Source: Atractiella rhizophila (taxonomy: Eukaryota). Taken from it: a stretch of 64,000 nt of DNA. The position numbers were made by a program, and so were the translations under genes. Positions 22,082 through 52,785 of this stretch are shown one piece after another (the stretch's first letter is position 1; every line of letters begins with the position of its first letter). The notes below the pieces were generated by a model. It searched no databases. It was not told where the DNA came from and saw nothing but the letters and a program-made list of their open reading frames with translations. The DNA lies in contig MU271246.1 in the NCBI GenBank assembly GCA_021432655.1, forward strand, positions 1 to 64,000, read 5' to 3'.

Positions 22082-22244
22082 NNNNNNNNNNNNNNNNNNN
22101 CTTTTCGTGGGACAGATGGCGGCGCCGAGTACGAAGGAGGCGAAGGAGATGAGGGAGAATGAACGGTTGGAGAGGTGGGAGCAGATGGGGTGGAGGAGGA
22201 AGGTGGTTTGGGAAGAGAGGGCGAAGAGGAGGGCGGTTTGGTAG
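19836..22244 (+). CDS. MRPL20: Mitochondrial ribosomal protein mL58 (MRPL20). 5' part read backwards (uncomplemented) from ATG at 20294; 3' part normal at 22101-22244
   Basis: Reverse reading MSFFTLSRHITRRSVH...RDPL...LPDGTLFIVRTPPS...MRRLRAQDPAFWS continues into LFVGQMAAP...GWRRKVVWEERAKRRAVW*; two small indels in the mirrored part. Confidence 0.82.
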
Positions 22245-25302: not shown

Positions 25303-26316
25303 TCATAGCCAATCCTTGGAGCCGTGATGAGAAAGAAAATCGCCACTTTGTTCTCGGGTTAAGTGATGAATAACGTCCAAACAAGCCTCCGCACTCTCTT
25401 TCGTCGTGATGAGACCGTTGAAAGTGGGTTTCACCTTTCTGAACTCGCCGACAAGGTATGCATCGATAGCCTTCTCCTGATCATTTCCTGGAGAAGAAAG
25501 GCTTGATCAGCTTGTAGGAAAGGACAAAGTCCAAGCACTTACGCTCTCGGGTCAAACTGTCCACATATCCAGGGGACAGGGACAAAAACTTGATTTCCGG
25601 GTAGGCATAAGCCCATTTGGCCGTCAACATGTTCGTGGCAGCCTTCGAAATGGAGTACGGAGCGGTGGCCGCGAAACGTGCTGCTCGTGTGAACTCGAGG
25701 TCTGCTAGACCAGTCGACTATTGACAATATTGAGGTGTGAGGTGAGGTAGCGGTGAAATGGAACGAAACCTTACAAGTGTTACCGCCTTGGGATCAGACG
25801 ACTTCAGGAGCAAAGGTAGGAAGGCGAATATGGTAATGTTTGCCTGACCTATTGTCAGCGCCGGCGCCCCCGACATTGAGATTCCTGAAACTTACACCTA
25901 GCACGTTCACCTCCCAGTTCTCATTCATGTCCTTTAAAAACTGTTTTAGCTTCCCGTCTCCCTCCACGTACCCCCTCGGCGAATCGCCATGCATAACACC
26001 AGCATTGTTAATGAGGACATCGACCTTGTTGGCTTTGGTTTCGACGTCTTTGACCACCTTTTCGAGCGTCGAAGCGTAAGACTCAGAATCTCCAATCTCC
26101 CCGATTTCGACAACGTGTACATTTGATGCAGGTGTGTAGATGAGAGTAGACTTGCTTCGCACTAAGGCGAATATCGTGTTCGAAGACTCGGCGGAGAGTT
26201 GTTGAACCATGGCTGCTCCCTATTCACCAAACAACTTCCGTCAGAGAGTCATTTTCTACGTCTGCAGAAGTACGCACAATCCCACGAGCTGCTCCTGTAA
26301 TCACGTAGACAGACAT
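25303..26316 (-). CDS. Short-chain dehydrogenase/reductase, paralogue B (tandem duplicate of A)
   Basis: Same exon layout and motifs as A (INNAG, YSISKAA, SHHGSKDWL*); upstream sequence also similar. Confidence 0.93.
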
Positions 26317-29232: not shown

Positions 29233-31656
29233 ATGAGTGCTTATATTGCAACCCCAGTCTTGGCAAAGGTCGTGACGAATGCTTTACAGTTTCGTTTTCA
29301 TCATGCCTTACCCCATAAGAAGCGTATCCTCCTCTTGGTGCGATCGCAGGCTCCCCTGTTCAAGACTCTCAACAGTCTGTCCCGCAACATCCCCTTACGG
29401 TTCCGTTGCTTTTACTACAGGAGTAAAGTCGAGCGAGCAGGCAAAGAATGGTAGACCGCCAAGATTCTGTGTAAATTCTTAGCTTCTGACATTATGTCAC
29501 ATTCAAGTTGCTAGTTGCTGATGTGCTCGCTCGCAGGTTGTCCGATAAAGGGTCTGAAGTCCCCATCGTTGGCGCACGTCGTCGCACTTCAACATGGAAG
29601 TCATCAGTGTCCACCGTCCACGCGAAAGCTACAGCGGAATATAGGGCGGAAGCCGTTCCCGAGCCTCAAGCGATTCACAATGTCTACGTTTACGCTGTCG
29701 CTTTCATCGTCTCGATGGGTTCAGCGGCATATGGTTATGACACCGGGGTAGGTGGCTCATATACCTCCTGAGCATCTATTGATCAGTCGACGGTTTGACT
29801 TGATAGTTCTTCGGAGGAACGCTTGCCCTGCCTTCATTCATCTCTGAATTCGGATTCGACAAGATGTCAAAGGGCGAAGTGACGAACGAGAAAGCGAACC
29901 TGGTCTCTCTCTTCCAAGCCGGTTCTTTCTTCGGGACCATTATGCAACTCCCTTTCACCGAAAGGTACGGTCGATGGCCCGCCATCCAATTTGCCAATAT
30001 CATCTTCATTGCTTCAGCCTTCGCCCAAACTTTCGCGCATGGATCTATTCCCATATTCATGTTCGGAAGGTTCCTTGGTGGATATGCAGTCGGATTTTGG
30101 TCACTCGTCATTCCGGTCTATTTGGCGGAATTCGCTCCTGCCTCAATTAGGGGACGGATGGTCGGCTTCTTCGACATCTTTTTGCAGATTGGAACTTTGG
30201 GTGGCGTGCGTTTCCCTCAGACTTACGTCGACAAACGACTGATGAGCCTGTGAACACAGTTCTGGATCAATTACGGGATCGAGAGCTCGCTTAAAAGCAA
30301 CAGATTCCAATGGCAATTTCCCGTCTTTGTCCAATTCTTTCCAGCCGTCATCTTAGGAATTGGACTCTTCCTCTGTCCTGAAACACCTCGTTGGTTGATC
30401 ACGAAAGGGCGAGATGAAAAGGCTCTCAAGAACCTATGTAGGCTTCGAAGATGTACGTCGCATCCTTCTCTCAAGTTTATGCGCTCGCGCTGAATCAGCT
30501 CCAACTAGTGCCGCCCAGCGACCGATACATAGAGTACGAATTCTCGCAGACCAAGCTAGAAGTGGAGGCGGAGAAGCGACTGAGGGGAGAAACTACGTTG
30601 CTCAAGATGTTGAAAGAACTCTTCAGGACGAAGGGATTGAGGAACCGCGTCTTTCTAGGAATGACGCTGATCGGTATCAAAACATTCAGTGGGGTACAAG
30701 CTGTGAATTACTACTCTCCTAGTAAGTCTCCCTTACTTTCGACCGCACTCGAGTTGACCTTGTGGCTCTTAGTCATTTTTGAGCAGCTAGGATTTCAAGG
30801 CTCTAAGAACTCACTCTTTGCCACTGGTAGAATCTTGTCTCCATCGTCGCAATCTAAACTGAGCATAGTTTAGGTATCTATGGGACATGTAAATTTGTTG
30901 GAACCCTCATATTTGGTCTCTTTATCGTCGATCGCGTAGGACGACGTAAACCCCTCATGATCGGAGCGGTAGTGCTATCTCTGTGCCTGTTCTACATTGG
31001 CGGATACGTGCGTCACTTTAACTCCCCCACTTTACTCTAAGCTGAAATATACACGTGCAGCTCACAGCAGTCGGACCACGGGAGGAAGGTGCACCTCGAA
31101 AAGCAGGAGACTACACGGCAATCACAGCTATCTTCCTTTACGCTACCGCATATTGCTTCGGATGGAATTCAGTGCCTCTCACGATTGTCTCTGAAATATT
31201 TACGACGAGGGTGAGGACACTGAGTATGACCTTCTGTATCGCTTTCCAGGTATGTCCGCACCCCCTGATTTGTGGCAGATCACATTCCTGACTGCATCTA
31301 TAGTGGCTTTGCACCTTTGCGATAGTAAGAATCATGCCAGAGGCGTTGAGCCATATCAGTACGTCTCAACTTTTCATGTGCAAATGGAGAATTTGTTAAC
31401 GTCTCCACACTGGATAGCGACTCGAACCTATTTCGTCTTCGCCTCCATCTTTATCTGGGGTCTCCCATTCGTATATTTCTTTGTCCCCGAAACGAAAGGA
31501 CTACCTCTCGAATACATGGACAAGCTTTTTGGCGATGGAAGAACGGCTAGAGAGCGAGAATTGGTCACAGAAGAGGGAAGGATTGGGTCGATGGAAGAAA
31601 AGAGAGATTTGGAACAAATCGAGGACAACAAATCGTTGCCCACTATTCAGGAATAA
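29233..31656 (+). CDS. MFS sugar-porter family transporter (quinate/hexose permease-like); start uncertain
   Basis: YGYDTG, ERYGR, PVYLAEFAPASIRGR, PETPRWL, VDRVGRR, SEIF, PETKG. Confidence 0.92.
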
Positions 31657-34297: not shown

Positions 34298-35300
34298 ATG
34301 TCTACTTACGTGGTCACAGGAGCGTCTCGAGGAATCGTAACTGCCTTTGTTACCTCCTAGATACAATTGTTGACGCGCGGTGGGAAAAGGGTTCAGCTTT
34401 GGTGCAGCAGCTTTCTACGAATCCATCGAACACTATATTCGCGTTGGTGCGCACGAAAACCAATTTCATTTACACTCCTGCCTCGAATGTGCATGTCTTC
34501 GAAATTGGTGAGATAGGCGGTACCGAGGCATACACTTCAAAGCTAGAGCAAGTGGTTAAAGACGTTGAAAGGATATCAGGCAAAGTTGATGTCCTGATAA
34601 ATAATGCTGCGGTGCTGCATGGACAATCTCCAAAAAGTTACGCAGAAGGAGAAGGTCTGAAAAAGTTCTTGCAGGAGATGAATGAGAACTGGGAGGTTAA
34701 CGTCGTTGGGGTGCGTAGACTCTATTTAGCCAGTGGAGATTCTGATAATTGTCAGGTCAACGTCACAATTTATGCGTTCATCCCATTGCTCAAGAAGTCT
34801 CCTGATCCGAAAGCTGTTACTGTAGTATGTTGTCCATCAATCGGTAGTTGTGTCCCACCTCGCTGATCCATCTGACAACTCGATAGTCTTCTGCTTTAGG
34901 TGACATGGAGTTCACTCGCATCCCGCGCTTCGCGGGCACCGCTCCTTATTCGATCTCCAAGGCAGCAGTCACCATGTTGACAGCCAAATGGGCATTCGAT
35001 TATCCAGAGATCAAGTTTCTGTCTCTCTGTCCGGGATATGTTGATACGTTGACCAGAGAGCGTAAGATTTCGCCCGGAATGCCGAAATGGCGGCTAACGT
35101 TGGCCATTGGGTTAGGCACTGCTGAAGAAGAACAGCGTGTCCAGTACTTGACGGCACAGTTCCAGAAAATCAAACCAATTTTCCAAGGGCCGATCACAAT
35201 GAAGGAAAGCGCCAGAGCCTGTCTTCACGTTATTGATCATTTGACTGAAGGACAGAGTGGAGAGTTGCTGTCCCATAACGGCTCAAAAGATTTTCTGTAA
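34298..35300 (+). CDS. Short-chain dehydrogenase/reductase, paralogue C
   Basis: MSTYVVTGASRGIG, DVLINNAA, PYSISKAA, LSHNGSKDFL*; TATA-like tatataaaaa at ~34221. Confidence 0.93.
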
Positions 35301-38404: not shown

Positions 38405-38661
38405 CGATGGGGTGCAAGGAGATGCGGGGGCGGGAAGCCATATGACACGTGACAATGAATATTATTGCCTTTCGCCTCCTATCCCGCTGCAACTCGTCTC
38501 TAGTTCGCACATAACTGTTCCGTAGGTTCAGCAAGTACCATGCACAAATGTAGGCTGGACAACGGGTTATTGAAACACAACTTGTATGCAATATATGAAA
38601 ACGACACGTCTTACGTGGACAGGTCAACTCTTACTTTTCATTCAAGTGTCCATTAACAATT

Positions 38662-40028
38662 CTACTCCCTTTCCTTCCATGCCTTCTGATCCCCCCTCTC
38701 GACACCAACCCTTGTCTCATCATCACTTGAAGTAGTCTTCTCACCATCAGGGACATGGCTGACATCAGACCTCCTCGCCAAATCTTCTGCGGTTTGATAT
38801 CCACGAGGAAGGGCAAAAAGTGGACTGGCGGGGATGAAAATCAGGAGACAGATCAAGCAGGGTAGCATGTCGAAAAGGAACCAGAATTCGTGCAACACTT
38901 GGTGGTAAAACCAACGTCAGCCGTTCCCAGTTGATTGTGAATGAAAAACGGGACAAGTGAAACCTACTGAGATAACCACGCCAGCCTTCCGCAAGTTCTA
39001 TGACTCGGTAAATGCCTCGAAGGATGATCATAGTGCTACCGAAAACTAGTCCCCAGCCGAGCCAGTGCAGACGCTCCAAGCCAGGCGTTGCGCGGATATG
39101 GGGAGCGAGAGGCGATTTCCTCAGCCCGTTCCAAAAGTGAAGCGCGAATACGGAGAAGATAATCATTACGGCCAATTGGACAATAATCCCGCCGAGCTAA
39201 GTCCAGAGCATTGTATGAGTAAATATGCGGGTGAAGGTGAAGGTGACGATGTAGGAGGACGAACCATGATGTCACTGCCTCGATGGAGCTTCTTCACATC
39301 ATTGCTGTTTGATCCAGCTGATGCAACGCCGCCGCCAATCGCTTGTACGACTAGCGATACAATATCTCCAGTAATCTGTGTTGCATGAATCAACGTTGAC
39401 CGGGCGAAGGGGGAGAAGACAGACAAATATAATCCAATATCGGTTTGGTCTGATAATGGAGTATTTCGGGCTCGTTGCCGAGATGACCCAGCCAAGAATG
39501 CCATAGATCGCAGCCCTGAGACAGATGTGTTCAGGAACGCAATAGATAGGTGAGGGAATATACTAACGAAAAGAAAGCGGGAGCAATGATGAGGCAAACG
39601 ACTTGGATTATGAAGGCAGTTTGCGAGTAGGGATCATAGCCACCGATCAACCTGCCCACCCATCCCAAGGTTTCGAGAGCGCCTCCGACGACCCAATTGA
39701 GGAGCCACCACCTCCTCGTTCTGATGGTGAGAAAGAGGTGAGCGAGTGTTGCTATACCGCTATCGATAAATACAGTGAATTTCCTTTCTAGCCTGAAAGA
39801 AAGCGATGAGACCCACAAGAGAATGACACTAGCAAAACCCCATGCTTTTGAAGGCATGTAACGATAGGGATTGCAGAGATCATGCGTAGGATCATAACCT
39901 GGCAAATCGTAAAGCTTCGGCTCGCTGTCTCGTACTTGGTCGCAATATTGTTCGACCGTCAAATTTGTCCCAGGGACTAACGACCCTTGTGTGGTTTGAC
40001 GCGCAATGAAATGGCGCACTAAGTCCAT
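38662..40028 (-). CDS. RTA1-family membrane protein (paralogue 2)
   Basis: Strong similarity and same intron layout as 8629-10078 (VPGTNLTVEQYC, CNPYRYMPS, LETLGWVGR, RGIYRVIELAEGW). Confidence 0.92.
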
Positions 40029-40552
40029 CTACCAAGCAATCAAACAAGTGAGATGAGATAACCGTAAGTGGAGAGGAGAGGACAGAGCGGACCTTGAAAC
40101 TTGAAAGCAAAAATCGACGCAAATTCGTCGTTATATAGGATGATAGAGTCCAGAATTGAGTAAGAAGGATGAATGAAATCTTTTCTGGTGGACCTTCGAC
40201 ATTTTTATCCGGATTCTGCAGCAGAACCTGTACAAGCTGATTGCGATTGTTGGCTGTTTTCGGACACTGATTGTCGCGTCGACATGTGCCCAAAGCGGAC
40301 ACGAACTTTTGTCCTGGGTTCATGACGCTTTTGGACCTGAGAACACAGGTCGAATCCCCGGAAAAAACTCGGCCCCTTCTTTCCCTTCTTCTGCTCCTTC
40401 GCTTGGCAGGTGATGTGAGGACGTGATTTGTGGGGGTTCTTACGAGAAAGAGCTCGGACGGAGCGAAGTCAACCTGTCTTTCACGTCACAGTCGTGGATA
40501 TCGCGGCCGCAGATGCACTGGCGAAGGAAAGTGTCAGCTATCTTTGGTTCAT

Positions 40553-40750
40553 CACCGTAGAAAGCTTTTCGGAAGGTGGCCTGCTGCTAAAATCAGCAGG
40601 CGACCTTCCGGTTACGAGCATGTTACCTGCTGAAACTCCATCAGGCGACCTGATTGCGACGATTTGTCCAATCATCAGGTCGCCTGCTGCCAGCCATCAG
40701 CTATATTGCAAGAACCTGATGGCTGGTGGCAGGGGACCTGCGCGTACCTG
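40553..40750. repeat. Left TIR plus subterminal palindromic CAGG-N3-CCTG repeats and hairpins
   Basis: cggaaggtggcctgctg/cagcaggcgaccttccg; caggcgacctgat/atcaggtcgcctg; ccagccatcag/ctgatggctgg; caggggacctg. Confidence 0.85.
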
Positions 40751-42166
40751 ATGGTAGAATCCTGCACTGGCTACAGCTCCTCCCTTCCTCTGCTTCTTTA
40801 CACCTCTTATATGCACTGGAACACCTGTGAGGATTATGTTGGGATTGCGAATGCATTGTACTATTTTAGTGTCATACAAACATGGTAACTCATCCTTATC
40901 AGACAAAAAAATTATTCCACGGCTGACTCATGAATCAGCTTCATCTGATGCAGTAGAGATTACTCAAAAATCATACTTGCAAACATACTAAGTTATTTCC
41001 CTAACTCACAAGCAATTAGCATGGCCAGAAATCACCCAAGCAAAGGAAAAGCATACCTTCGGAGCAGGTGAAAAGATACCTAACAAAGTTCCATCTCATC
41101 AGTCTCCGGTGCAATTTGGAACCAAGGAAAGAACAAATGAAAAAGATACTTACATTAACCGTCAGAACTGCCACGATCTTTCCCTTCCAAGAGCGTAATC
41201 GAGCCTTTCTTCCACATCATTAAGTAGCAATAACACAGGCATGCGTCTTCAAGCTATCACACCGCTGATGTGGAGGACCTTGCATTTGAGCGTTCAAGGC
41301 AGGGCGTGTTGTCTTGCTGTCCCCCAATACATTAGAAGGCAGAACAAAGCTGTCTTTTGAACATTCATAGAAGGAACCCTATATTAACTTGTTGGTCTCA
41401 TCCCAGAATGATGCAAGTCGAAGCATTGTCGCCAAACCACAGTTTTCGAAGCATGCCACCCAATTTTCCTGTTCCTCCCTACCACTAACGAGCATACGAC
41501 ACACCTTTAGCGGTTTCCCACCTCGCTCTGTCGTTGGGCATCTTCTCCTGCTTGGCACAAAGCCCCATATCCTTCTTTATTCACTTTCGCCAGTAGTGGT
41601 CCATTACAAAGCGAATTTCACAGCAGACACATCGGAGTACCTGAGAGGCATTATGGAGCGGGTGTATGACTTGGAGAGGTACGATTGTGGCATATTCGTT
41701 GGATTGGTGCCCAAAATCTACCCTAACCCTACTACCTCCTGTCCTTCGCCAAAGGAAAAATGCAAAGTCCAAACCTGCATGTTGGTGGTACCACGCCAAA
41801 AGCGACAACACCAGGTTTCCAACTGGAAAATGTGAAATCAAAAAGTTGATGCGATGCCCACCGAAAAACTTGTCGACGGGCAAGAAATTTGGCCGTCTGA
41901 AGCTCAAATCAAAAAGGTCAGTGCCACCCAGAACAAATTTGATGCTCAGTCTGCCGAAGTTCGGCGGAGCTGTGACTCAGGCACACAGCATCAAAAAAGC
42001 TCTCCACAACCATCCAGATTGCGCTGCAATCCTTACCACGTCCCTCGCAAGTGCACCAGCGTCAGTTTTTGGTTAACCATGTTTCTTCCCTGGAGTCCGA
42101 GTCTTCTCCGCCTTCCATCTCTTCCCTCCGCCTCCTCACTTCCTCACTCGGTTCTCAAATTCAATC

Positions 42167-43083
42167 ATGTCGCCTCAAATGTTCCCACCAACGAGCACCA
42201 ACGTCTATTTTGATGCAGTGGAAGTACAAAACATCCTAGAGATAATTAGAGAGCGAGCCAGTTGTGAAGGGGCGGCGGCGGTAGCCATTTTGGAGGAGTG
42301 GGATGCGGTTCACGGAGCAGGGGAGTTCAAACCGCTGGAGGCGGTGGCAGAGGTACGAATCACCTTCATTCGCTTTGAGAAGATAGTGACCTGCGGAAAA
42401 GGTACACGCGAAGGCTGGGGCACTCCTTGCTTCATCAAGGTGCCTTTCACCATGCTCCCGTTACGCGACTTTTCCAACCTTCGGCGAGGTCAGCAAGCAT
42501 CAGAGCCTGAGCTACAAGGGGATGAGTTTGTGCTATACGTGGTGAGGCTTATTGCACTTGTTGTGTGACCTTGATGCTGAGCCCGTTGTTTGCAGAACAA
42601 GACACCGAGGAAGAGTCGACCAAAACGCTTCGAGCTGACTGCCTTTGGGAAAGCAAATACTCAGGTCAGCTTTCCCTTATTCGAATTTGCGTCCTCACGC
42701 TTCACGCGCACAGTCTCGTCTCAAGAAACCCTCGCGCCATCGCCGGTCCATGCGTTGGCAAGACATTCGAAAGCTCCCGGATGGTCTCGTCATCACCAAC
42801 CAGGCATGTTTTCCTTTGCTCCTTCATCCAACCTTTTCATGCAACTTATGTTTCATTTGATAGCGCGGACACGAGGCGCCGAAAGTAATTGCTGAAATGT
42901 CCTTCAAAGAGTATCATCGATTCTTGAATGCTGGCCAACCGTTCGAGACGGAGAGCGAAAGCTCTGATGCACAGGAGGAAGCTACAGGAAGCTCGCGCAA
43001 CCGTGTCAAGGGTGAATAAAATAGCATGGAATTGAATTCATATTACTATTTACTTCCCTGTAGGAGCCAATAAGTCAACTTAA
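42167..43083 (+). CDS. Transposon-borne hypothetical protein (5 exons, one GC-AG intron)
   Basis: Splices to an open frame: MSPQMFPP...FVLYV|NKTPRKSRPKRFELTAFGKANTQ|SRLKKPSRHRRSMRW...TNQ|RGHEAPK...VK|GANKST*. Confidence 0.65.
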
Positions 43084-43109
43084 GTGCTACAATCTCACGG
43101 TGGCCATGA

Positions 43110-46100
43110 TTAATGAGGAAGTTCAGCATCCATAGTCGCAAGAGCATTGAGGATGGCCGCCATTGTCCGCTCCAGGTTCATAAGAAGGGTGCTCTATCTT
43201 CTCATGAACAATGGAAATGGCAGTGAGAATTGCGTACCCGCATCTTGACATTCGTGCGGACCTTTCCTCCCAGCTGATGAATCAAAGCACGAAGGCCATC
43301 ATCCGACAAGGTGTCTGCCTGGAATCCGGACTGGAAGCAGGGCAATGTAAGGAGAGTCGGAGAGGGACGGGCGAGCGTTTCCTTAATCTGCAATTGAACT
43401 GCTTTCGATTCTCGGTGCTTTCTAACACCTTCATGGACAAGCACTTTGCGGTCAAGTCGAGGGATCGGTGGAAGGAATCTCTCAACCATTTCGCTATTTC
43501 AGACGGTATAGGCATTCAAAATGTAATAATGTTTGTTTGGGTCTGCTGTTCGATGCTGAATCGCACGCCTCCGCTGTTCAGTCATCTTCCGTTCTTGACG
43601 TAGCAGTTCAAATCCATCGTCGACGCACCCTGCTATCTGGCAGGCATGCTGAATATTGACAATCCCTTTGATTTTGTCCTTTAAGCAGATTTAGTACCTT
43701 TTAAACCGAGATATATACTTGGAGCAATGACTTACTACTGAATCGAGTCGCGATAATTGCGGAGAGGGTAGTAAGAGAGGAAGCTGATGGTGCTTGTACC
43801 AAGCTCCTGTGAAGCTCATTTGACAGCCATATATGTGGAGTTCTTGATTATTCTGCCCGGCACGATAGTCGACCGGCTGCAGAAGAAGCATTTGGTCGAC
43901 GCGAAAGATGTACGGATACTGAGATAGCGAATGTAAGCAAGGAACCCGAGACGAGAGGAGTTGAAGAGAGAGACAACGTACACGTTCCTCCGGCTCTACC
44001 AGGATAAACGTTCCGGTGCGCACCTCCTCTTCAGAGTGAGCAATAACTGAACGGACTTGAAGATGGTTGAAATCGCGAAAGCTGTTACCATCCGATGATA
44101 GAGGAATTGAGGGCTGCAGCTTATGAAAAATGGTGTCCATTGCAGCTTCGAGACGTCTTGTGGTTTATATGGACAGCGAAGACGGGTTTATAAGCTAAAA
44201 GTTTCGACAGACTGACGTATGCTGTAGTTTTCTCAGTCGCCGTAGCGCTAGACTTTCGTTGTAGAAACCTATGAGGATAACTCGTTCTTGGTCACAAGTT
44301 CCTTGTCGAAGGGAGTGTAATACCTTCAGAAACGAAAGGAGCAGCCCGCCTTCAGTCGAAACTTGTCTTTCCACTTAGAGACGGACTATAATAGGTAGTT
44401 TCGTGTCACCCTTAACTCCCGCTGCAACTCTACAAGTAGAGACTCTTGTAGAGTTCTGTACATCTCCTTCTCCAACTTCTCCTCCTCCTCCTAAATGAAG
44501 ACTCTCATCGTTACTTCCTCATACTCGCGCGTGTTTCGTATAAGACCTCTGAAGTCTACTGCTCAAACTAAAGGCAGTGAGTCTATTGCTTTCACTACCT
44601 CCCCTCAGTAATAGTCGACCTCTCCTACTTCCATGTAATCAACTACAAAAGCAAAGCTACGGTAGCGACTGTTACCCGAAAATAATCTATTTACAAGACC
44701 CGGGTTCGAAGGTGTTAACTGACACTACCTCCTGAGTTTCCTCACCAAAGGCATAAGCTTATTCGTCCAGACAGGACGATAACAATATAAGACGAGTCGC
44801 TAACTACAGACTGGTACTTTCGTCGTACGAGACAGACTGGATGAGGAGTTAGAGGAAGCTGTGTTTTAGGGTCTTAGAGAAGCGTTCGAGGAGACCTTCG
44901 AATATGGCCTTAAACCAAGACTCGTACGTTGCAACTTTCGCCGAAACGGGAGTTTCCTTGCCGAATTCCCCAAACGTTTTCTTCTACCTCCTAAACCCAC
45001 AACCTCGCGCCTGAGTACTTATAACACCAGTGTCCCCGTTAAAACAGATACACTTGTTGGGAGTTATGGTACTATCGCCTCCACACAGATAGTTACGAAA
45101 ATGAAAGATCAACACGTGATGAGTAAGTTTATTGGTCCGGTAACGTTTTGGGAGAGTAGTCTTTTGTAGAGTGGAAAGACGGTCTTCTGTGACCGCTATG
45201 GCAAGTTCTCGACATAGTCCCGCTATTCACCTTCTCCCTTTAGTTACGCGCGGAGGATTGCGGAAGGTAACAACAGTTTCCTGTCGAGATGAAATGACTG
45301 CTCCAAGACTTCGATTTCCTACCAAGAATGAAGGAACAGAGGGCGACCAAACATTTCCGGCCACACCACGTACCGTCACCAATGTTACAGAACACCAGAC
45401 TACACGACTCTCCGAAATAATAGCTGATGTCTCCGTACACAAGGCAAAGATACCTAGTCGACTACTACTTGCCAGGCTGCGTCCTCCTCCTTCTAGGCCT
45501 AAGGTTAAAGTAGTTTCCATACTACAGGGGACCACGAGTGTAACCTTCTTGGCGAGTGGTAAAAGTATCCACAGAGTTGACGTCTTCCGAACTAGGTGGG
45601 GGTTCTTCGGACCTTCGGCTAGAGTTTGGAAGCGCGAGTCACATTTCCTGCTGCTCAACACTGCCAAGGTCATCAGGACATACGACTACTATGCAGGCCT
45701 TTGGCAAGTTTCTTCACCTTGTTCGTGGTCTCGAAAGAGCGCTGAGATCGTCCATATATGAAGACGAGGAAATACAATTTACGACTACGTAGTCGTGAGT
45801 TAGATCCGGAAGGCTTGTTTGAGGTCGTCGTTCTCAAGACACAAGTTAAAGAGCCTTGGTGGTTACAGCCAAGCCAAGAACTTGAAAACCTCCCACACAC
45901 AGTCGGTCTAAAACATTCATGACATGTCGTTAGTTCTACACTTTTTGGATTAAGGTCAGTACGTCCCTACGTACCTTTCTCGGACATCACCGGAAGCTGA
46001 CAGAATGTCCTCTTCTCTAGTATAAGTCCGGGGAAGGAGAGGAGAAGCTTCCGCTATTAGGGTACGTCAGGCTTAAGACGAGCTAACGTCCAGATCGCAG

Positions 46101-47440
46101 TGACTTCAAGACGGCGCGCAGACATTTCAACCCCGACTTAGTTTCCGTCTCCTCGTCTGACTTCTTGTATATGTGGTCAAAGAATTTCACGCGCGTTCAA
46201 CCCCCCGACTCAGACAGCAAACTTGTGAGTTGCTACCGTATCACACCGCTTGGCGCTTCTGGGGATCTCTGTGAGCGTAGGGAAGCGGCGAGACAACGGT
46301 AACGTCGACTAGACTGTAATGGGTTTCCAGTTTAGCTACGACTTGCTTGGAGGAGGCCGCAGTTCCTATTGCAATGTTGTAAGAAGCACCTCGTTAACAA
46401 CGTCGACGCGTTCCTGAAGGTACCTAGTTTACTCCGCGAAGTTCGGCTTTATTGCTTCTGTAATCTTCTCATAGTAAGCTCTGTCAAGGTCGTGTTGGGA
46501 CGTAAAGTCGAAAACCCAAATCTAAAACTAAAGGTAGCACTGTGGGGAAAGCTTCAGAACGTGCCTTAAGACGAACCTAAACAGTTCATGAAAACCGCGC
46601 TATTGTAGTTCACCGAGAGAGGAAGGGTTTCCCGTAACCATGATGCTTTTGACCTGAGAGAACTCCAAAGACCTGACTTGTGCCTTGCCTAGGGTCCGAG
46701 AGTTGAACAGCTAATACGGGTGTCGGACCACCCGTTTCTAAAATTTAACTAATACGTTCAACGCGACAAACGTGAGCTGCCTCACGACCTTTTGCTCGAA
46801 CACAGCTAAACCCAACGAGAACCCGCAGACCCAAGCGACCATACCGCGGGGTTTCAGTGAAGCTTCCTCTGAATATAACAAACAGAAACTCATAAAGGTT
46901 CGTGGTCGACTACTCGTTCCTGAGGTCTTGCTGAACCTTCGTCGTTAGCGAAAGAAGGACCTGAGTTGACGTTCGGACTGCTGTGTTTACCAAGTTGTTT
47001 GCTTTCAAAGTAGAGGAGCAAGTAGAACGTCTGTTGCAGGCAGCTAAGCCTCACGGATAGTTGATACGGTGGCTTTTTAAGCTTTCGATGTTGCCACATC
47101 ACGTAGACGCGAGTTAAAAGAGATTGGTAGTTCGAGGGCCTCAGCTGTAACGTCGGAGGAAAAGTCCGATGCTGGCTCATGCGGTGTAAAAGTCGCCGCC
47201 CAAGACCTTCCTGTTCCGGTGACCAGTTACCCAAACACGCAGGAGCTTACAAGAGTCGGAATACGCGCTGTTCAGGATAAGAGTCTACGATCCTGAATGT
47301 GAGGGCGTAAGCACCAGACTTAGAGTAAGCTATTGGTTGGCAAGTGGTCCAAACAGAAGAGACTAAGTCACTGGAAAGACTGTAACTGTTGGGCAGTCCA
47401 TGAACCCTCGAACTCTCAGTCTCGTTGTACGTGAATGGTC
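43110..47440 (-). CDS. DDE transposase, CMC(EnSpm/Mirage/Chapaev)-like fungal family. 44143-47440 must be read as plain complement; premature TGA at 43499-43501; start probably in gap 47441-47465
   Basis: Complement gives CRFC..HQKSQRH zinc finger, EWFPY, NPLIRKHLTFLPED, LYADDTSGNRSKKWNKH, GDNPMQSEFCS..FCR.C, GVKD, DTPFEVLHGILLGFVKYFW, KFHLLVHL..RRFG..TEKFESYN; joins in frame to normal-strand AMDTIFHKL... and IQHAC..QER..YILN. Confidence 0.9.
44143..47440. other. Mirror-reversed segment 2, left of 25-N gap
   Basis: Complement strand shows GT-AG introns and transposase motifs; in-frame join at 44142 (MHLP-A-MDTIF). Confidence 0.96.
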
Positions 47441-47602
47441 NNNNNNNNNNNNNNNNNNNNNNNNNCCTCTTTCAGTGTCTCTCAATATATTGCTTTTAGC
47501 GCTGATTTTCAAGTTCTGAAGTTATCGTATTCAAACTGTGGTTCTAAGGTATGCAATTCCTCGTTAGTGGTGTTTGTCTCGATCATTAACAAACTGAAGC
47601 AG

Positions 47603-49003
47603 ATGGCTCAGTTCAATGACTACAACTCGCTGCTCAGTGGTCTGAATGTCTCTGGCACAGGCTTCAATACCGCAAACAGCACCCCGGTGATCAACACCCC
47701 CTCCAACGACCCATTTGCCGTCCGTCGCCAGGAACTTCGCGACAACTCTGACAATGGAACTGAAGAGCTCACCCATCGCGCTCCTGCTAGTGGGTATGGT
47801 ACCTTTGGGAACCCAGCCTACAGGAGGTCGGGACGTCAGCATCAGCATGGTAGAATTCAACGCTGTGATCGAGGGGATCGTCAGTACTCGGCCATTACTC
47901 AAGCCACAGGATATCCCTGCGTTGTTGCGTTTTGGCGTAGTAAGTATTTCTTCAGCGTCATTGTCTGTAAGAACATAATGTGAGGTGCATCCCAGGCACC
48001 TGAGGTTGTTCAGAGGGTTGAAACTGAAGGCGGATCTTTTGGTCCTCACTCGACAAGTGGAAGCGCACGACCTGAAAACTGATCAAGCAATGGTCAGTCA
48101 GTAAGGATCTGAAGGTAAGATGTCCACTCTACTTCGTGCAGATACACACTCTGACATACTTCCCAGGAGTTCCTCCGTCAGCTGGTTGCGGAACTCCTCC
48201 GCACACCAGATGTCTATGCTTACAAGGTCAAGTTTGGTGACCGGGCGAAAGTGAGTCGTCATCGCTCTCTTAATGATGTCTCCTCCTTAGATTGGTTTGA
48301 AAGATGCCATCTTTCAAACCAAACTCATGATTGCTTTTCACTTTTACTATCGGATCTGACAACGTGTTGCGGGGTTGGGGATAACAGAGGTACATCGAAA
48401 AGGCTGAACGCGAGGCTGGAACGAAGTATTTCACCGCTGCTTGGGAAGAAGGCTCTATCATGCAGAAGAAAGTGATGAAGGTCATTGAATATGAGGCGGG
48501 TCAAGAACGCTCCGCGATCAAGGAAATTGTGGGCGTTTTCGTTCTGGTTTAGCAGGCAAGGCTGATACGCCAGTATATAGATCGAAAAATCGATCCAAGA
48601 AGGGTGGGATATCATTAAGCTCGCAGTTGCGGTCGTGAATGGCTACAACATCCGCCCCAGTGCAGAACTGCAAATCCGTCTTGCTTACATTGTAAGTATG
48701 GTTTCTCCATTTGATATGTATATGCTGATTTGTTGGATAAGCGGTCTTTACGTGCCGGCCAACACGGTGACTTCACAACTAGGAATTTCTGGAATCAGGT
48801 CGATGCAAAGATGGCAGATGTGCGTAAGAGTTTGACAGCCACGACGTGTGTATAGTTCTTTGGCTTTCATCTACCTGTTTATACTTACAAGATGTGCTAG
48901 GTTCTATTCAGAATGCTTAGCTTGGGACCAGGGCAAGTGGCCGGTTCAGCAAAGCTCAAGAGACTCCCTTCGAGATGTCGAGACTCTGGCTACCGGCGTC
49001 TGA
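47603..49003 (+). CDS. Transposon accessory protein (multi-exon), divergent from the transposase
   Basis: MAQFNDYNS...; FLRQLVAELLRTPDVYAYK; ELQIRLAYI|RSLR..NFWNQVDAKMADVRK..FYSECLAWDQGKW..ATGV*. Confidence 0.7.
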
Positions 49004-49593
49004 GCATGAGCCTATATAGGTAACGTCTTTTCCCGTTTCGTTCTGCAAATGTCTCTCTCATTGATATATAGGGCAGCACGCTTCAAGTTCCTCAGTGGCC
49101 GATCCACGCCGTGCTCTTTCTCAGCTACTTCAAAGTGATGCGGATGCATCTGCCCTCTCGTATACCGGTAGACAAAAGTCTGGCCATTATGCAATATAAC
49201 ATACATTTCTATTTATTAATTTCTGGCAAGGAATCTGGGAGAATGCAAGCGCAACAAAAAACAGAAAGTGGAACCGGGACTACAAGTTGTGTCGGACGCA
49301 CTTGCTGGCGAGCTGGTTAGCGTGTTGCCACCAACTGGCCTCACCATCAATCTTTTGATCCTGTCTGTCTGTCGCTCAGTCAGCTTCCGGAGGCACGTTC
49401 GAGCGAGATGGGTGGAATTCAAAATTTTGTGCTACAGCATCAAACATTTGGTTGGACTGAGGATGAAATTCCAAATGTCGGCGTTGGGTCCTGCTGGCGA
49501 AGTGCTGGGGAGCTCATTTCGGTAACTCGACCACGAGCAAAAAACGTCCCAAATCCACATCCCCAGAACGTGGGTTTCAGTTTGGCGTGTAAG

Positions 49594-49666
49594 CAGGGAA
49601 CCTGACGGCAAAATAGAGTTCCTGCGTGTAGCCATCAGGTCACCTGCCGAAAGAATTTCCACGGTG
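49594..49666. repeat. Right subterminal repeats and TIR
   Basis: cagggaacctg (49594), caggtcacctg (49636), ends ...tttccacggtg. Confidence 0.85.
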
Positions 49667-50056
49667 TTCATCCCCATCCCCTGTCATCCCCATCTCCAAT
49701 CCGTAACTCCTCTTCTCGTGACTCCCGTACCGCCAGGGCCGTGGGGCATGCATACTGTGGACAGAGAGAGTAGTGATGTTAGGTCACATCCCTCCTGCAA
49801 ATAGTAGCAAACGAAGCACAAACATAACATCTGCTGCTTCTATCATAGCTGTCCATGCAGCGAGGCGTTTCCTAACTATACTAAAAGTTCTCATTTCCTA
49901 ATTCCTAAATACACAGTACAGTACTACCAGCAAACCATCCAGAGTCCGTTCGAACCAAGAACTTGACACATCGACGTCAAGGGTCGTTAAAGGGTACTAG
50001 AACGTTAAAAGCAAATCTGACAATTGTTCGTTGCACAAAAAAAGGATTGAAGCACG

Positions 50057-51327
50057 TTAGGTTCCGAAGACCACTCCCAAGACGATGGCGAGAACGACGA
50101 TTATCAAAACGAAACACCCGAAGAGATACCACCTAAGCTTGCGCGCGTTTCGAGCGCTCTTGACCGCTTCCCGCATGTTTTTCAGCCTAGTACAAGCAAA
50201 GTTCGTACGGTATCAACCATAAGTAAAAGCAATAGGAGAGGACATACGCAAAGCCCATATCTCTAGTCGTATCGTCCACCTTCTCATTAATGCGCTCTAT
50301 TTTCTCATCGTCTTGTTCAACCATGATTGAGAGCTGCATAAGAGCGTAAGGACAGTCCTCACTGAGATGGAGAAACCGAACAGACCTCATTGACGAGTTG
50401 GGCAAGTTGGGTCATTGTCTGTTCGATCTTCTTTATTTCGTCCCTCCTTTCTTGGACATCCTGGTAAGCACTCCTCGCATCCGAATATCGATTCGAGTTC
50501 AAAAGCTTCCACGCTGTCATTGGCTTGTGAGCGGATGACGCACAGAAGTGCTCACAGCTTGAGAAAATATCTGGTCTCCCCTGCCGTCCTCGATCGCACT
50601 TCGCACTTCCTCGTCCGTCTGCCCTTCATCAGCCTTCCTCTCACGGAGACCGATTTCAGACCCACCGCCTCAGGTTTCACAATCTTATACTGTCTCTCCA
50701 TCCGCTCCCTCAGTTTGTCCCTATTCTTCTTCTCTTCCTTCTGATATTCCTCAATGACTCCCTTGAACCTGTTCTTAAGGGCAGCCGCCTGTTGAAGCCG
50801 GACTTTCTTATCATCCCCTGCTGGCAGACGCGCGATAGACTTCTCCAAACGAGTGAGATGGCTCTTGATATTGCTCAATGAACGAGAAGCCTCCTCTTGA
50901 AGTCGTTGAACGCTTTTTGTGGCGGATGGATCACGATCTGGAGAAGACAGTGCTTGTTCTTGGGCGGAGGACAGTTGTTGGATCGTGCCACTGAGGGAGG
51001 TGAGCTGGTCTTGAATTACTGAGAACTGGGAATGAATCTCGTTAGAGGATATTCAGAAATTGACGAGCTATTAGCATTTCAAAGCTTTTGGTAGCTTTGA
51101 AAAGGAGCGGAGTGAGAACTTGTAACGCACCTCATGATTAAAATCGTTCCCTCCTTCTCCAGCTTCCAGGCTACGAGGCTGATCAGAGCCATTTGTCGTT
51201 GGAGCCTTCAAGTTTCCTGCAAGTGAATCCTGGTTCTTCGAAAGCATCCCAGCCATCTCAGTGCTACCATAGTCTGGATATGGTCGAAGGGACGAACCTG
51301 AAACGCAGCCAGTCTATCTCTCGACAT
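50057..51327 (-). CDS. Plasma-membrane syntaxin (Sso1/Sso2-like t-SNARE)
   Basis: MSRDRLAAFQ start; RMERQYKIVKPEA; SNARE motif KIEQTMTQLAQLVNE..IMVEQDDEKI; ARNARKLRW plus C-terminal TM helix. Confidence 0.93.
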
Positions 51328-51330
51328 TTT

Positions 51331-52539
51331 CCCTCTTTCTCTCCTGACACTGGCAATCACCTCCTAAGCTACTAATAGGTCTCGGGAAACGCTTCGACCG
51401 TGGAGAGAACATTCCTCTTCCTCTCACGAGCCTTTATTTAGGCGACGTCGCTGGTCGGACTTCCCGTTGACCGTGTATTTATTATATAGAGTAGCGCTCA
51501 ACATAGCGACGAGGTAAAGTCCGATGCGCTCAAGTTGCTACAACCGTCTTCGGTCGTTCAGTGGTGTGTTCCGGAATACGAGTGTGGTGTATTCTTTATG
51601 ATGAAATTGGCTAAGATTGGGTAATGACTCCGTACTAAAGCGTGTCTAGCCAGTTTAGGTAAGGGTGCGGAGGTGGGTGTGGGAGTGGGATGTGTAGGGA
51701 GGGTGGGAAGGCGAGGGGTGGGAGACCAGGGAGAGGTGGCGGGAGGAGTCGTGTGAGAGGGGGGAGGAGGGAGGAGGAGGAGGAGGGGGTGAGGTGTTGG
51801 CGGATGGAGGCGTGGAGGGGGAGGAGGGGAGGGTAGGGTTTTTTGGAGTGGAGCGGGGGGCGTGGTGGGGAGGTTGGGGGTTGCGACAACTGGCCGCGTG
51901 GTCGCCGCGAATACCGGGAACGCTTACGCGTGCCCCAGCTCACATGCCGCCACACACACGTCTCCCCCTCACGACACGGCGGACCCTACCACCTAATACC
52001 TGAGAGCCGCCTCCCACCTCTCCCCCTCCACCTCCCCACCTTCCGCCACTTCCAATCCTTCCTATTCCCCTCCTTCCTGTCCCCCCTAAGACCTTACATA
52101 TAAACTCTCTACCACCTACCTTACCGACGACCCTTAACACAACACTCAACAACACATCCTAAGTTCAAACACTACTTTGCTTTACACAGGCTTTACAGTA
52201 ATACCTCAAAAAGGGCCTCAATGTCGTCCTGTCGAACGCTGAACGTAGGTTGTTGACGTAGCAGTTATCGTCACCGGTCGCGAGCTTGATTTGTTAGAAT
52301 CGATTAGGGTAGTCGTTCAGTTCACACGGTTAACGAAAGTGCACAAACTCAAAGATGTGTTCTACCTTAGGATTGAAGCTAAACTCACCTTCATAGACGT
52401 CTAGACTTGAGGCAGTAATGGTAGTTATGGCAAGTACTGGTTACATTTCGAAGGGCAAGTCAAACAAAAGCAGCAAGCGCCGAATGAGCCCGGGGCTCGA
52501 AAGCATGCTAGTAACCGCATGTTTCCTGATACTCTCCGC
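51331..52539. other. Mirror-reversed segment 3, left of 246-N gap (left boundary uncertain, ~51331-51361)
   Basis: Complement contains a ctaac...cacag splice acceptor and a coding exon ending GMYI*. Confidence 0.85.
51647..52106 (-). CDS. Terminal exon of a probable proteasome assembly chaperone PAC1/Pba1-like protein (read as plain complement; one indel)
   Basis: IGQIHSH...PPLQPPTLLTGAPAALMALANAHGVECTAV...DSGMYI*; C-terminal HbYX-type motif MYI. Confidence 0.6.
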
Positions 52540-52785
52540 NNNNNNNNNNNNNNNNNNNNNNNNNNNNNNNNNNNNNNNNNNNNNNNNNNNNNNNNNNNNN
52601 NNNNNNNNNNNNNNNNNNNNNNNNNNNNNNNNNNNNNNNNNNNNNNNNNNNNNNNNNNNNNNNNNNNNNNNNNNNNNNNNNNNNNNNNNNNNNNNNNNNN
52701 NNNNNNNNNNNNNNNNNNNNNNNNNNNNNNNNNNNNNNNNNNNNNNNNNNNNNNNNNNNNNNNNNNNNNNNNNNNNNNNNNNNNN

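Follow-up and report, generated by a model that had tools for sequence, protein, structure and literature searches.

An apparently new, unclassified and probably non-autonomous TIR transposon with CAC termini and a 5-bp target-site duplication in Atractiella rhizophila

Is the 9.1-kb stretch of Atractiella rhizophila DNA that lies between two copies of the pentamer TTCAT a transposon, and if so, which family does it belong to and where is its transposase? The original prediction was of a DNA transposon whose two ends are both intact, with CAC termini, a 5-bp duplication and a CMC-like transposase. Our analysis of the 64,000-nt window (the whole stretch of DNA analysed) supports all but the last of these claims: the element, which occupies positions 40553-49666 (9114 bp), is a TIR transposon, apparently new, unclassified and probably non-autonomous. 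Its parts are listed in table 1.

Table 1. Positions of the parts of the element in the window, with the evidence for each
Feature	Position	Strand	Evidence or remark
Left target-site duplication, TTCAT	40548..40552	.	Sequence read; same letters as 49667-49671
Left TIR, first letters CACCGTA	40553..40586	+	27/34 vs reverse complement of right end
Left arm, multi-copy in X1, kept in putative deleted derivative	40553..41787	.	Depth
Left subterminal repeats	40597..40755	.	CAGGNNNCCTG palindromes and CCATCAGG / CCTGATGG copies
Left CAGGNNNCCTG palindromes	40642, 40676, 40730		
Gene A	42061..43566	+	Transcribed, spliced; four introns in X3, X4 and X5 RNA contigs
Interior without detectable gene	43567..47440	.	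Pfam, phmmer, RNA/tRNA/repeat searches
Assembly gap, 25 N	47441..47465	.	Inside element
Gene B	47466..49591	+	Transcribed; 7 GT..AG introns in X3, X4 and X5 contigs
Right arm, kept in putative deleted derivative	49589..49666	.	Joining contig and palindromes
Right CAGGNNNCCTG palindromes	49594, 49636		Inside right arm
Right TIR, CACCGTG read inward	49633..49666	-	34 nt
Right target-site duplication, TTCAT	49667..49671	.	Sequence read

Both ends start, in inverted orientation, with CACCGT, and the imperfect 34-nt terminal inverted repeats (TIRs) described earlier were reproduced (79% agreement); their likeness begins exactly at the termini and has no outward extension. The TTCAT outside both ends is exact, and with these termini a flanking direct repeat can be read at a length of 5 bp only; lengths of 2, 3 and 4 bp fail, as had been stated, and so does 6 bp. 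The length of the target-site duplication (TSD) is known from this one insertion (n=1), and the single site has one G/C among its five letters. Among the 1,148,398 position pairs of the window that lie 0.5-20 kb apart and have a 5-bp flanking repeat, 5.1e-5 pairs with TIRs matching at 27 or more of 34 positions are expected by chance. A TIR pattern with up to three mismatches allowed matched the element's two ends and nothing else in the window, and it matched in none of 100 shuffles. The window has six CAGGNNNCCTG palindromes, of which five are no more than 220 nt from the left end or 120 nt from the right one, and four of its five CCATCAGG copies are at the element's ends.

The insertion site is intergenic DNA, with an RTA1-like gene on one side and a syntaxin gene on the other. 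The end of the insertion lies 25 bp upstream of the last covered base of an RTA1-like transcript contig, so the insertion may affect the promoter of that gene. The scan for TIRs with a TSD returned only one other pair in the window, 25643/34961; it sits in a 496-bp inverted duplication (67% identical) that crosses the supposed junction.

Contigs from one public DNA run (X1) and three RNA runs (X3, X4 and X5) were aligned to the element region. One X1 contig (record 2) is unspliced across all four introns of gene A, which are missing from the X3, X4 and X5 contigs; X1 thus has the behaviour of DNA and the other three runs that of RNA. In the X1 contigs the left ~1.2 kb of the element stands at 4-8 times the flank depth (1254-2237 at 40670-41971; left flank, 259-431); the flanks overall have depths of 259-653 and the unique interior 141-273, and position 40585 is covered by nine contigs. 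One further X1 contig, at a depth of 711.5, joins 41787 to 49589 with three shared letters at the junction; it has the look of a relative reduced to 1.3 kb by internal deletion, a reading for which this single contig, whose shorter side measures only 32 nt, is the evidence. The raised depth of the left arm and the joining contig together place the element in a multi-copy family, whose full-length form is approximately single-copy in X1 and whose short form is multi-copy. TIRs, a TSD and multi-copy ends are the generic features of a class II TIR transposon. We give hardly any credence to the idea that there is no mobile element here and that inverted ends and TTCAT fell around host genes by coincidence; it could appeal to the single full-length copy, the imperfect TIRs and the failure to find a transposase, but the very low chance expectation, the palindromes clustered at both ends, the multi-copy ends and the contig joining the two arms all argue against it.

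The element as assembled contains no recognisable transposase. The CMC-like enzyme of the original prediction was to carry the motifs DDxSGN..KWNKH and GDNP, yet KWNKH, GDNP and DD.SGN have no match anywhere in the window in any of its six frames; the nearest fragments, DDLS at 40658 (in the subterminal repeats), GDN at 48377 (in gene B's third intron) and KWN at 49266, are spread over 8.6 kb. Pfam searches of 186 open reading frames, each ORF or exon taken singly in an element with an internal gap, gave nothing that reached the cut-off: none of the 103 ORFs of at least 45 aa in 40400-49800, and none of the 83 ORFs of 22-44 aa in 43500-47440. Transposases of the CMC group are recognised by a Transposase_21, 23 or 24 domain and by a C(2)C motif and an H(3-4)H motif in the interval from the second D to the E. 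These 103 and 83 ORFs gave no match to Transposase_21/23/24, Plavaka or RAG1, to a hAT transposase or dimerisation domain, or to KDZ, and phmmer comparison of four ORFs with the PDB gave nothing relevant. Exons here encode 28-47 aa, and a divergent transposase gene with many introns could slip through such an ORF-by-ORF scan. With no transposase recognised, the element cannot set the ends or TSD length of any transposase family, including the DDxSGN..KWNKH / GDNP family for which it had been thought to define them.

At least two further spliced genes had also been predicted; the RNA contigs show two spliced genes in all, A and B, both transcribed and spliced in the three runs and both with very few relatives. 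Gene A has an open frame from an ATG at 42167 to a stop at 43017-43019 and maps to the annotated model P0002, a hypothetical protein of A. rhizophila. Removal of its 49-nt intron 1 shifts the frame, so its coding capacity is uncertain; the product would have ~190-230 aa, with the frame broken in the main splice form. The coding part of gene B spans approximately 47841-49003, and its exons 4-6 are annotated, with 100% identity, as P0001. In exon 2 the window has two extra bases (48021 and 48075) relative to all X1, X3 and X4 contigs there, and these disrupt the frame. A relative of gene B, the A. rhizophila hypothetical protein P0003 (262 aa), maps over residues 1-262 to 47841-49000 (tblastn). 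The annotation calls genes A and B ordinary hypothetical proteins, and one of its models has an intron that is absent from the RNA contigs.

Neither gene matches a family in Pfam searches, and HMMER found two credible relatives of gene B among 1.84 billion representatives. These orphan features, together with their expression and splicing, are what could be said for one of the two genes, or for an unrecognised interior gene with many introns, being a non-Pfam transposase and thus the founder of a new superfamily, which we regard as very unlikely. P0003 is short and its predicted structure is all-helical, at low confidence (pLDDT 51.5), and so would be a poor fit to an RNase-H-fold DDE enzyme; its ESM Atlas neighbours are unnamed Basidiomycota protein clusters (0.94-0.96), and its weaker leads there, DUF6698 (0.88) and DUF6532 (0.86), are not enzymes. 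The size and broken frame of gene A speak against it as well, and neither gene has any likeness to a nuclease or recombinase.

The interior between the two genes was searched separately. None of its ORFs of at least 22 aa has a Pfam match above the cut-off, three ORFs compared with the PDB by phmmer gave no match, and searches for RNA families, tRNAs and tandem repeats were negative. The interior is nevertheless not securely assembled, because it ends at the 25-N gap and because an X1 contig carries at least 2.2 kb of unlike sequence there: in record 4 (3017 nt, depth 128.7), 833 nt align to 47466-48302, and the other 2184 nt continue to the left of the gap and find no place on 38500-51500 at 85% identity or above. 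An X4 RNA contig likewise has 83 letters before 47466 that are absent from the window. Both observations favour an autonomous element whose transposase lies in missing or misassembled DNA, at the gap or in the 44.1-47.4 kb interior, and at least 2.2 kb is long enough to encode a transposase (an autonomous Transib measures 3-4 kb, with a transposase of ~700 aa; Kapitonov and Jurka 2005, PMC1131882, cited here, like Kojima 2025, PMC12730594, from part of its text). Against this stands the absence of any transposase signal from the assembled interior in the Pfam and phmmer searches, and the single-copy full-length form beside a multi-copy short form fits either reading; we consider an autonomous element unlikely, though far from negligible.

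On balance we favour, with some reserve, the reading that the element is a single insertion from a cut-and-paste family of class II TIR transposons in A. rhizophila, hitherto uncharacterised, and that this copy is non-autonomous, with genes A and B as cargo. Such a copy would be mobilised in trans; the transposase responsible would be encoded at another place and would bind CAGGNNNCCTG and CCATCAGG as putative subterminal sites, cleave at the CAC termini and integrate through a 5-bp staggered cut, a geometry known, in the text cited, for Transib within the CACTA-Mirage-Chapaev-Transib (CMCT) group (PMC1131882, PMC12730594). The shorter 1.3-kb relatives would have arisen by internal deletion from 41787 to 49589 at the 3-nt microhomology, and genes A and B would be cargo or accessory genes and not the catalytic enzyme. 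The element is of use in the repeat annotation of this root-endophytic fungus.

Transib is the source of RAG1, and soybean rust and Atractiella both belong to the Pucciniomycotina. The element's one point of wider interest is that CAC termini with a 5-bp duplication are a Transib hallmark: in the part of the source cited, a 5-bp TSD sets Transib apart from all other superfamilies and its ends always carry CAC (PMC1131882). The same part reports Transib in fungi from soybean rust only (PMC1131882), and a Pfam-based survey found it absent from fungi (PMC5751038). A fungal Transib-type or new 5-bp-TSD CMCT lineage in the Atractiellomycetes, with a RAG1-like transposase beyond the gap or elsewhere and with CACCGTG and CAGGNNNCCTG replacing the nonamer, seems to us quite improbable; if of Transib type, it would extend the fungal range beyond that single report (PMC1131882), against the survey (PMC5751038), and would have an end architecture mixing Transib and CACTA features. 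Should the family's transposase be found and prove RAG1-like, the element would give a fungal relative of Transib its complete ends and TSD length; without a transposase it has no bearing on the fungal Transib question.

The likeness to Transib lies in the 5-bp TSD (one insertion), the CAC start and a TIR of 34 nt, against about 34-38 nt for Transib in the text cited; the suggested placement near CMC and Transib would be one by terminal features alone. Heptamer-like CACCGTR is present at both ends, and the inward CACCGTG of the right end agrees, as predicted, at 6/7 positions with the RSS heptamer CACAGTG and at 5/7 with the Transib consensus CACAATG (PMC1131882). An A-rich nonamer at the Transib spacing (~23 nt; positions 31-39) is absent from either end; TAAAATC is seen in the left end only, 29 nt inward of the heptamer (positions 36-42). 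Unlike Transib as described in the cited part of PMC1131882, the element is 9.1 kb long with two unrelated genes (Transib, 3-4 kb), has an AT-rich target (Transib targets are GC-rich; little weight attaches to one site), and shows clusters of subterminal palindromes, of which that part describes none for Transib. It also differs in that no RAG1-like transposase was found by the ORF-by-ORF Pfam search.

Clusters of subterminal repeats are classic for En/Spm, and the TSD of Chapaev is 4 bp. The element has such clusters but ends in CACCG, not CACTA. It resembles EnSpm/CACTA and the CMC/CMCT elements in its CA..TG (here CAC..GTG) termini, several genes and internally deleted derivatives, and the CMCT group is described, in the text cited, as having common CA..TG ends and 2-5-bp TSDs (PMC12730594); its 5-bp TSD differs from those of EnSpm (3), Mirage (2), Plavaka (2-3) and ESTA (TA) (PMC12730594). 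Kyakuja, Dileera and Zisupton (KDZ) differ in having TSDs of 7-8 bp (PMC12730594). The hAT5 elements, hATs with 5-bp TSDs that are grouped with animal hAT families (PMC12730594), differ in that hAT termini invariably have G as their third base, as in CAG or TAG (PMC1131882, legend of Figure S7), whereas here it is C. The element shares with hAT5 its 5-bp TSD and a short TIR, and no hAT domain was found in it.

Pack-MULEs and dSpm/Ds are non-autonomous, gene-carrying transposons or deletion derivatives. The element resembles them in having intact ends without a transposase, transcribed carried genes, and shorter relatives that consist of the ends only.

The window contains a genuine insertion of a terminal inverted repeat (TIR) DNA transposon that belongs to a multi-copy family; its coordinates and those of neighboring features are collected in the table below. 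Exact copies of TTCAT flank 9114 bases that start with CACCGTAGAAAGC and end with GGAAATTTCCACGGTG, and when the last 34 of these bases are reverse-complemented, 27 of them agree with the first 34. The inverted likeness begins precisely at the termini, where a direct repeat fits at a length of 5 only (2, 3, 4 and 6 all fail). A scan of the window found 1,148,398 pairs of positions 0.5–20 kb apart that have a flanking 5-mer in common; among these the chance expectation for a TIR of at least 27/34 is 5.1e-5, or 0.017 with a generous correction for the free choice of length in the original prediction. A degenerate form of the TIR pattern, with up to three mismatches allowed, matches the two element ends and no other place in the window, and matched none of 100 shuffles; in the metagenome collection it has no matches. 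Both ends also carry subterminal repeats: five of the six CAGGNNNCCTG palindromes in the window, and four of the five copies of CCATCAGG, are at most 220 nt away from the left end or 120 nt away from the right. Over 40000–50200, searches for Rfam families, tRNAs and tandem repeats had no match. The subterminal repeats had been overlooked when inverted CAC ends with a 5-bp target site duplication (TSD) were proposed here; that structural proposal holds, on firmer ground than its author knew.

Features of the transposon and its surroundings in the window
Feature	Position	Strand	Remark
Open frame, 639 aa	3286–5202	-	unbroken
N run	22082–22100		19 nt
Inverted duplication	~25540–26030 / ~34580–35070		
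Sugar-transporter gene	29807–31653		
RTA1-like	38768–40028	-	ORF match outside element
Left TTCAT	40548–40552		
Element	40553–49666		
Gene A exons	~42061–43566	+	four introns (X3, X4, X5)
N run	47441–47465		25 nt, inside element
Gene B exons	47601 or earlier to ~49591	+	seven GT..AG introns (X3, X4, X5)
Right TTCAT	49667–49671		
Syntaxin	50555–51052	-	ORF match outside element
N run	52540–52785		246 nt

A second apparent TIR and TSD pair at 25643 and 34961 is an inverted gene duplication (496 bp, 67% identity); it continues across the supposed junction, so this is not an element end. The duplication is between short-chain-dehydrogenase gene fragments that flank the sugar-transporter gene. Other open reading frame (ORF) matches outside the element are to sugar transporters, short-chain dehydrogenases and an aldo/keto reductase, and exons are short in this chromosome arm. 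RNA contigs of the syntaxin gene have CT..AC joints, as expected for its strand. The 639-aa open frame, which is unusually long for so intron-rich a window, matches no Pfam family at E≤0.001. An X3 contig of the RTA1-like gene (minus strand, 40093–40528) stops 25 bp from the left end of the transposon, which would put the insertion in or at the promoter of that gene.

Contigs of four public sequencing runs were aligned to the window. Run X1 behaves like DNA, with a 1719-nt contig that passes unspliced through all four gene A introns; X3, X4 and X5 were taken as RNA because their contigs are spliced. The summed X1 depth is 259–653 in the flanks, 141–273 in the unique interior and 1254–2237 over 40670–41971, and at position 40585 there are nine X1 contigs. 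A contig of X1 (depth 711.5) links 41787 to 49589 through 3 shared letters, with a shorter side of 32 nt. We read this as a 9.1-kb form that is about single-copy, accompanied by several copies of a putative short form of ~1.3 kb (the left 1235 nt plus the right 78 nt, as given by that one contig) and of other left-arm fragments. The empty-site joint 40552 to 49667 is not among the 15 of 40 joints listed from the four runs. Within the left arm, RNA contigs of X3 reach their greatest depth in the element over the non-coding-looking stretch 41104–41537 (933, against 150–360 over genes A and B), which holds no ORF longer than 65 aa except the start of one at 41371–41832; its transcripts may come from several element copies.

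As assembled, the element carries no recognizable transposase and two expressed orphan genes, A and B. Their public models P0002 (gene A, 186 aa, partial) and P0001 (part of gene B, 93 aa), both from A. rhizophila and annotated on one contig, align with the element at about 100% identity. Intron 1 of gene A (49 nt) is spliced out in X3, X4 and X5, and its removal shifts the frame; P0002 regains the frame by an extra intron within exon 2 (42400–42540), through which the X3 and X4 contigs run unspliced, so the public model is probably wrong. P0002 has no Pfam family, and a word-based protein search with the gene A ORF gave 34 candidates, of which the only real one is its own model.

The relatives of gene B are few. 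A HMMER search of 1.84 billion representatives with P0001 returned six proteins at E≤0.001, the query included: P0003, a gene B paralogue on another A. rhizophila contig (E 1.9e-20, 50% identity), P0007 from Hypholoma sublateritium (E 1.2e-4), and P0004, P0005 and P0006, which we regard as spurious (repeat/lectin-type proteins aligned in 13, 8 and 5 stretches, respectively). All 262 residues of P0003 align by tblastn to 47841–49000. A word-based search with gene B exon 4 gave one real match among 19 candidates, the locus's own model, and none of 332 pattern matches to the family in the metagenome collection was confirmed by tblastn. P0001, P0003 and P0007 are all without a Pfam family. The ESM Atlas gave nothing usable with P0001; with P0003 it gave unnamed Basidiomycota protein clusters (277–332 aa, scores 0.94–0.96) and, as weaker leads, DUF6698 (0.88) and DUF6532 (0.86), with structure matches all at TM ≤0.30. 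Pfam at E≤10 ties neither P0003 nor P0007 to these two families. An AlphaFold2 model of P0003 from a three-row alignment is all-helical and of low confidence (mean pLDDT 51.5), a quality that did not warrant a fold search. In the window, gene B exon 2 has extra single bases at 48021 and 48075 relative to every X1, X3 and X4 contig there, and these break the frame exactly where the P0003 alignment changes frame; they stem either from misassembly or from a defect specific to this copy.

The three N runs mean that the window is a scaffold and not finished sequence, and the interior of the element is not securely assembled. A 3017-nt X1 contig on 47466–48302 extends 2184 nt leftward with sequence that does not align to 38500–51500 at ≥85%, and the letters preceding 47466 in an X4 RNA contig, like the loose-end string before 42061 in X4, are absent from the window at up to three mismatches. 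The region 44142–47179 has no cover in the four runs, a hole to which we give no evidential weight.

The original prediction also assigned to the element a CMC-like transposase with DDxSGN, KWNKH and GDNP motifs. None of the three is present in any of the six reading frames of the window; the closest fragments lie in unrelated places, namely DDLS among the subterminal repeats (40658), GDN within gene B intron 3 (48377) and KWN (49266). In Pfam searches, which considered contiguous ORFs only in a region of short exons, no match rose above its family cut-off among 103 stop-to-stop ORFs of at least 45 aa in 40400–49800 (ORFs across the N gap excluded) or among 83 ORFs of 22–44 aa in 43500–47440. 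Neither the transposase nor the assignment to a CMC-like family holds. The best Pfam match, TANGO2 on 45676–45966 (minus strand; E 0.0041), was put down to chance, as it reaches 17.7 bits against a cut-off of 22.6, concerns one ORF of 103 and is not supported by neighboring ORFs. An Ulp1-like reading of 'YDCG' in the ORF at 41371–41832 was also rejected (no Pfam match; in a PDB phmmer search only unrelated proteins at E>1); it is one of four element ORFs searched by PDB phmmer, none with a relevant match. Among 5336 candidates for longer proteins none fuses a gene-B-like part (P0003 as query) to a transposase or other part. A codon-usage score trained on the genes of the window was discarded, since it failed to tell confirmed exons apart from the remaining ORFs.

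Cut-and-paste mobilization in trans is the likeliest mechanism. Whereas the ends, the duplication, the copy number and the transcription are observed, we infer that a transposase encoded elsewhere, or in the unassembled part, may recognize the subterminal palindromes, cut the element out at its CAC termini and insert it with a 5-bp stagger; internal deletion would presumably give rise to the short forms. The interest of the element is modest unless the transposase of the family is found.

By its ends the element is closest to Transib. In one account, a 5-bp TSD is said to set Transib apart from all other superfamilies, the terminal CAC is invariant, the consensus TIR is CACAATG followed by a 23-nt spacer and AAAAAAATC, and targets are GC-rich (PMC1131882). 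The element differs in having no nonamer at the canonical spacing, an AT-rich target, a length three times greater and no RAG1-like gene in its assembled form. The same text places a fungal Transib transposase in soybean rust only, and a later Pfam-based survey gives Transib as absent from fungi (PMC5751038). That the element represents a fungal Transib-type lineage, or a 5-bp-TSD lineage of the CACTA-Mirage-Chapaev-Transib group (for which PMC12730594 gives CA..TG ends and 2–5-bp TSDs overall), is improbable in our estimation. Its subterminal repeat clusters are CACTA-like. PMC12730594 also lists TSDs of 3 bp for EnSpm (with CAC..GTG ends), 2–3 bp for Plavaka, TA for ESTA, 7 bp for Kyakuja, 8 bp for Zisupton/Dileera, 6 bp for IS3EU and 5 bp for hAT5; the third terminal base of hAT elements is G (PMC1131882), whereas here it is C. 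We file the element under none of these families and treat it as new and unclassified among the TIR transposons.
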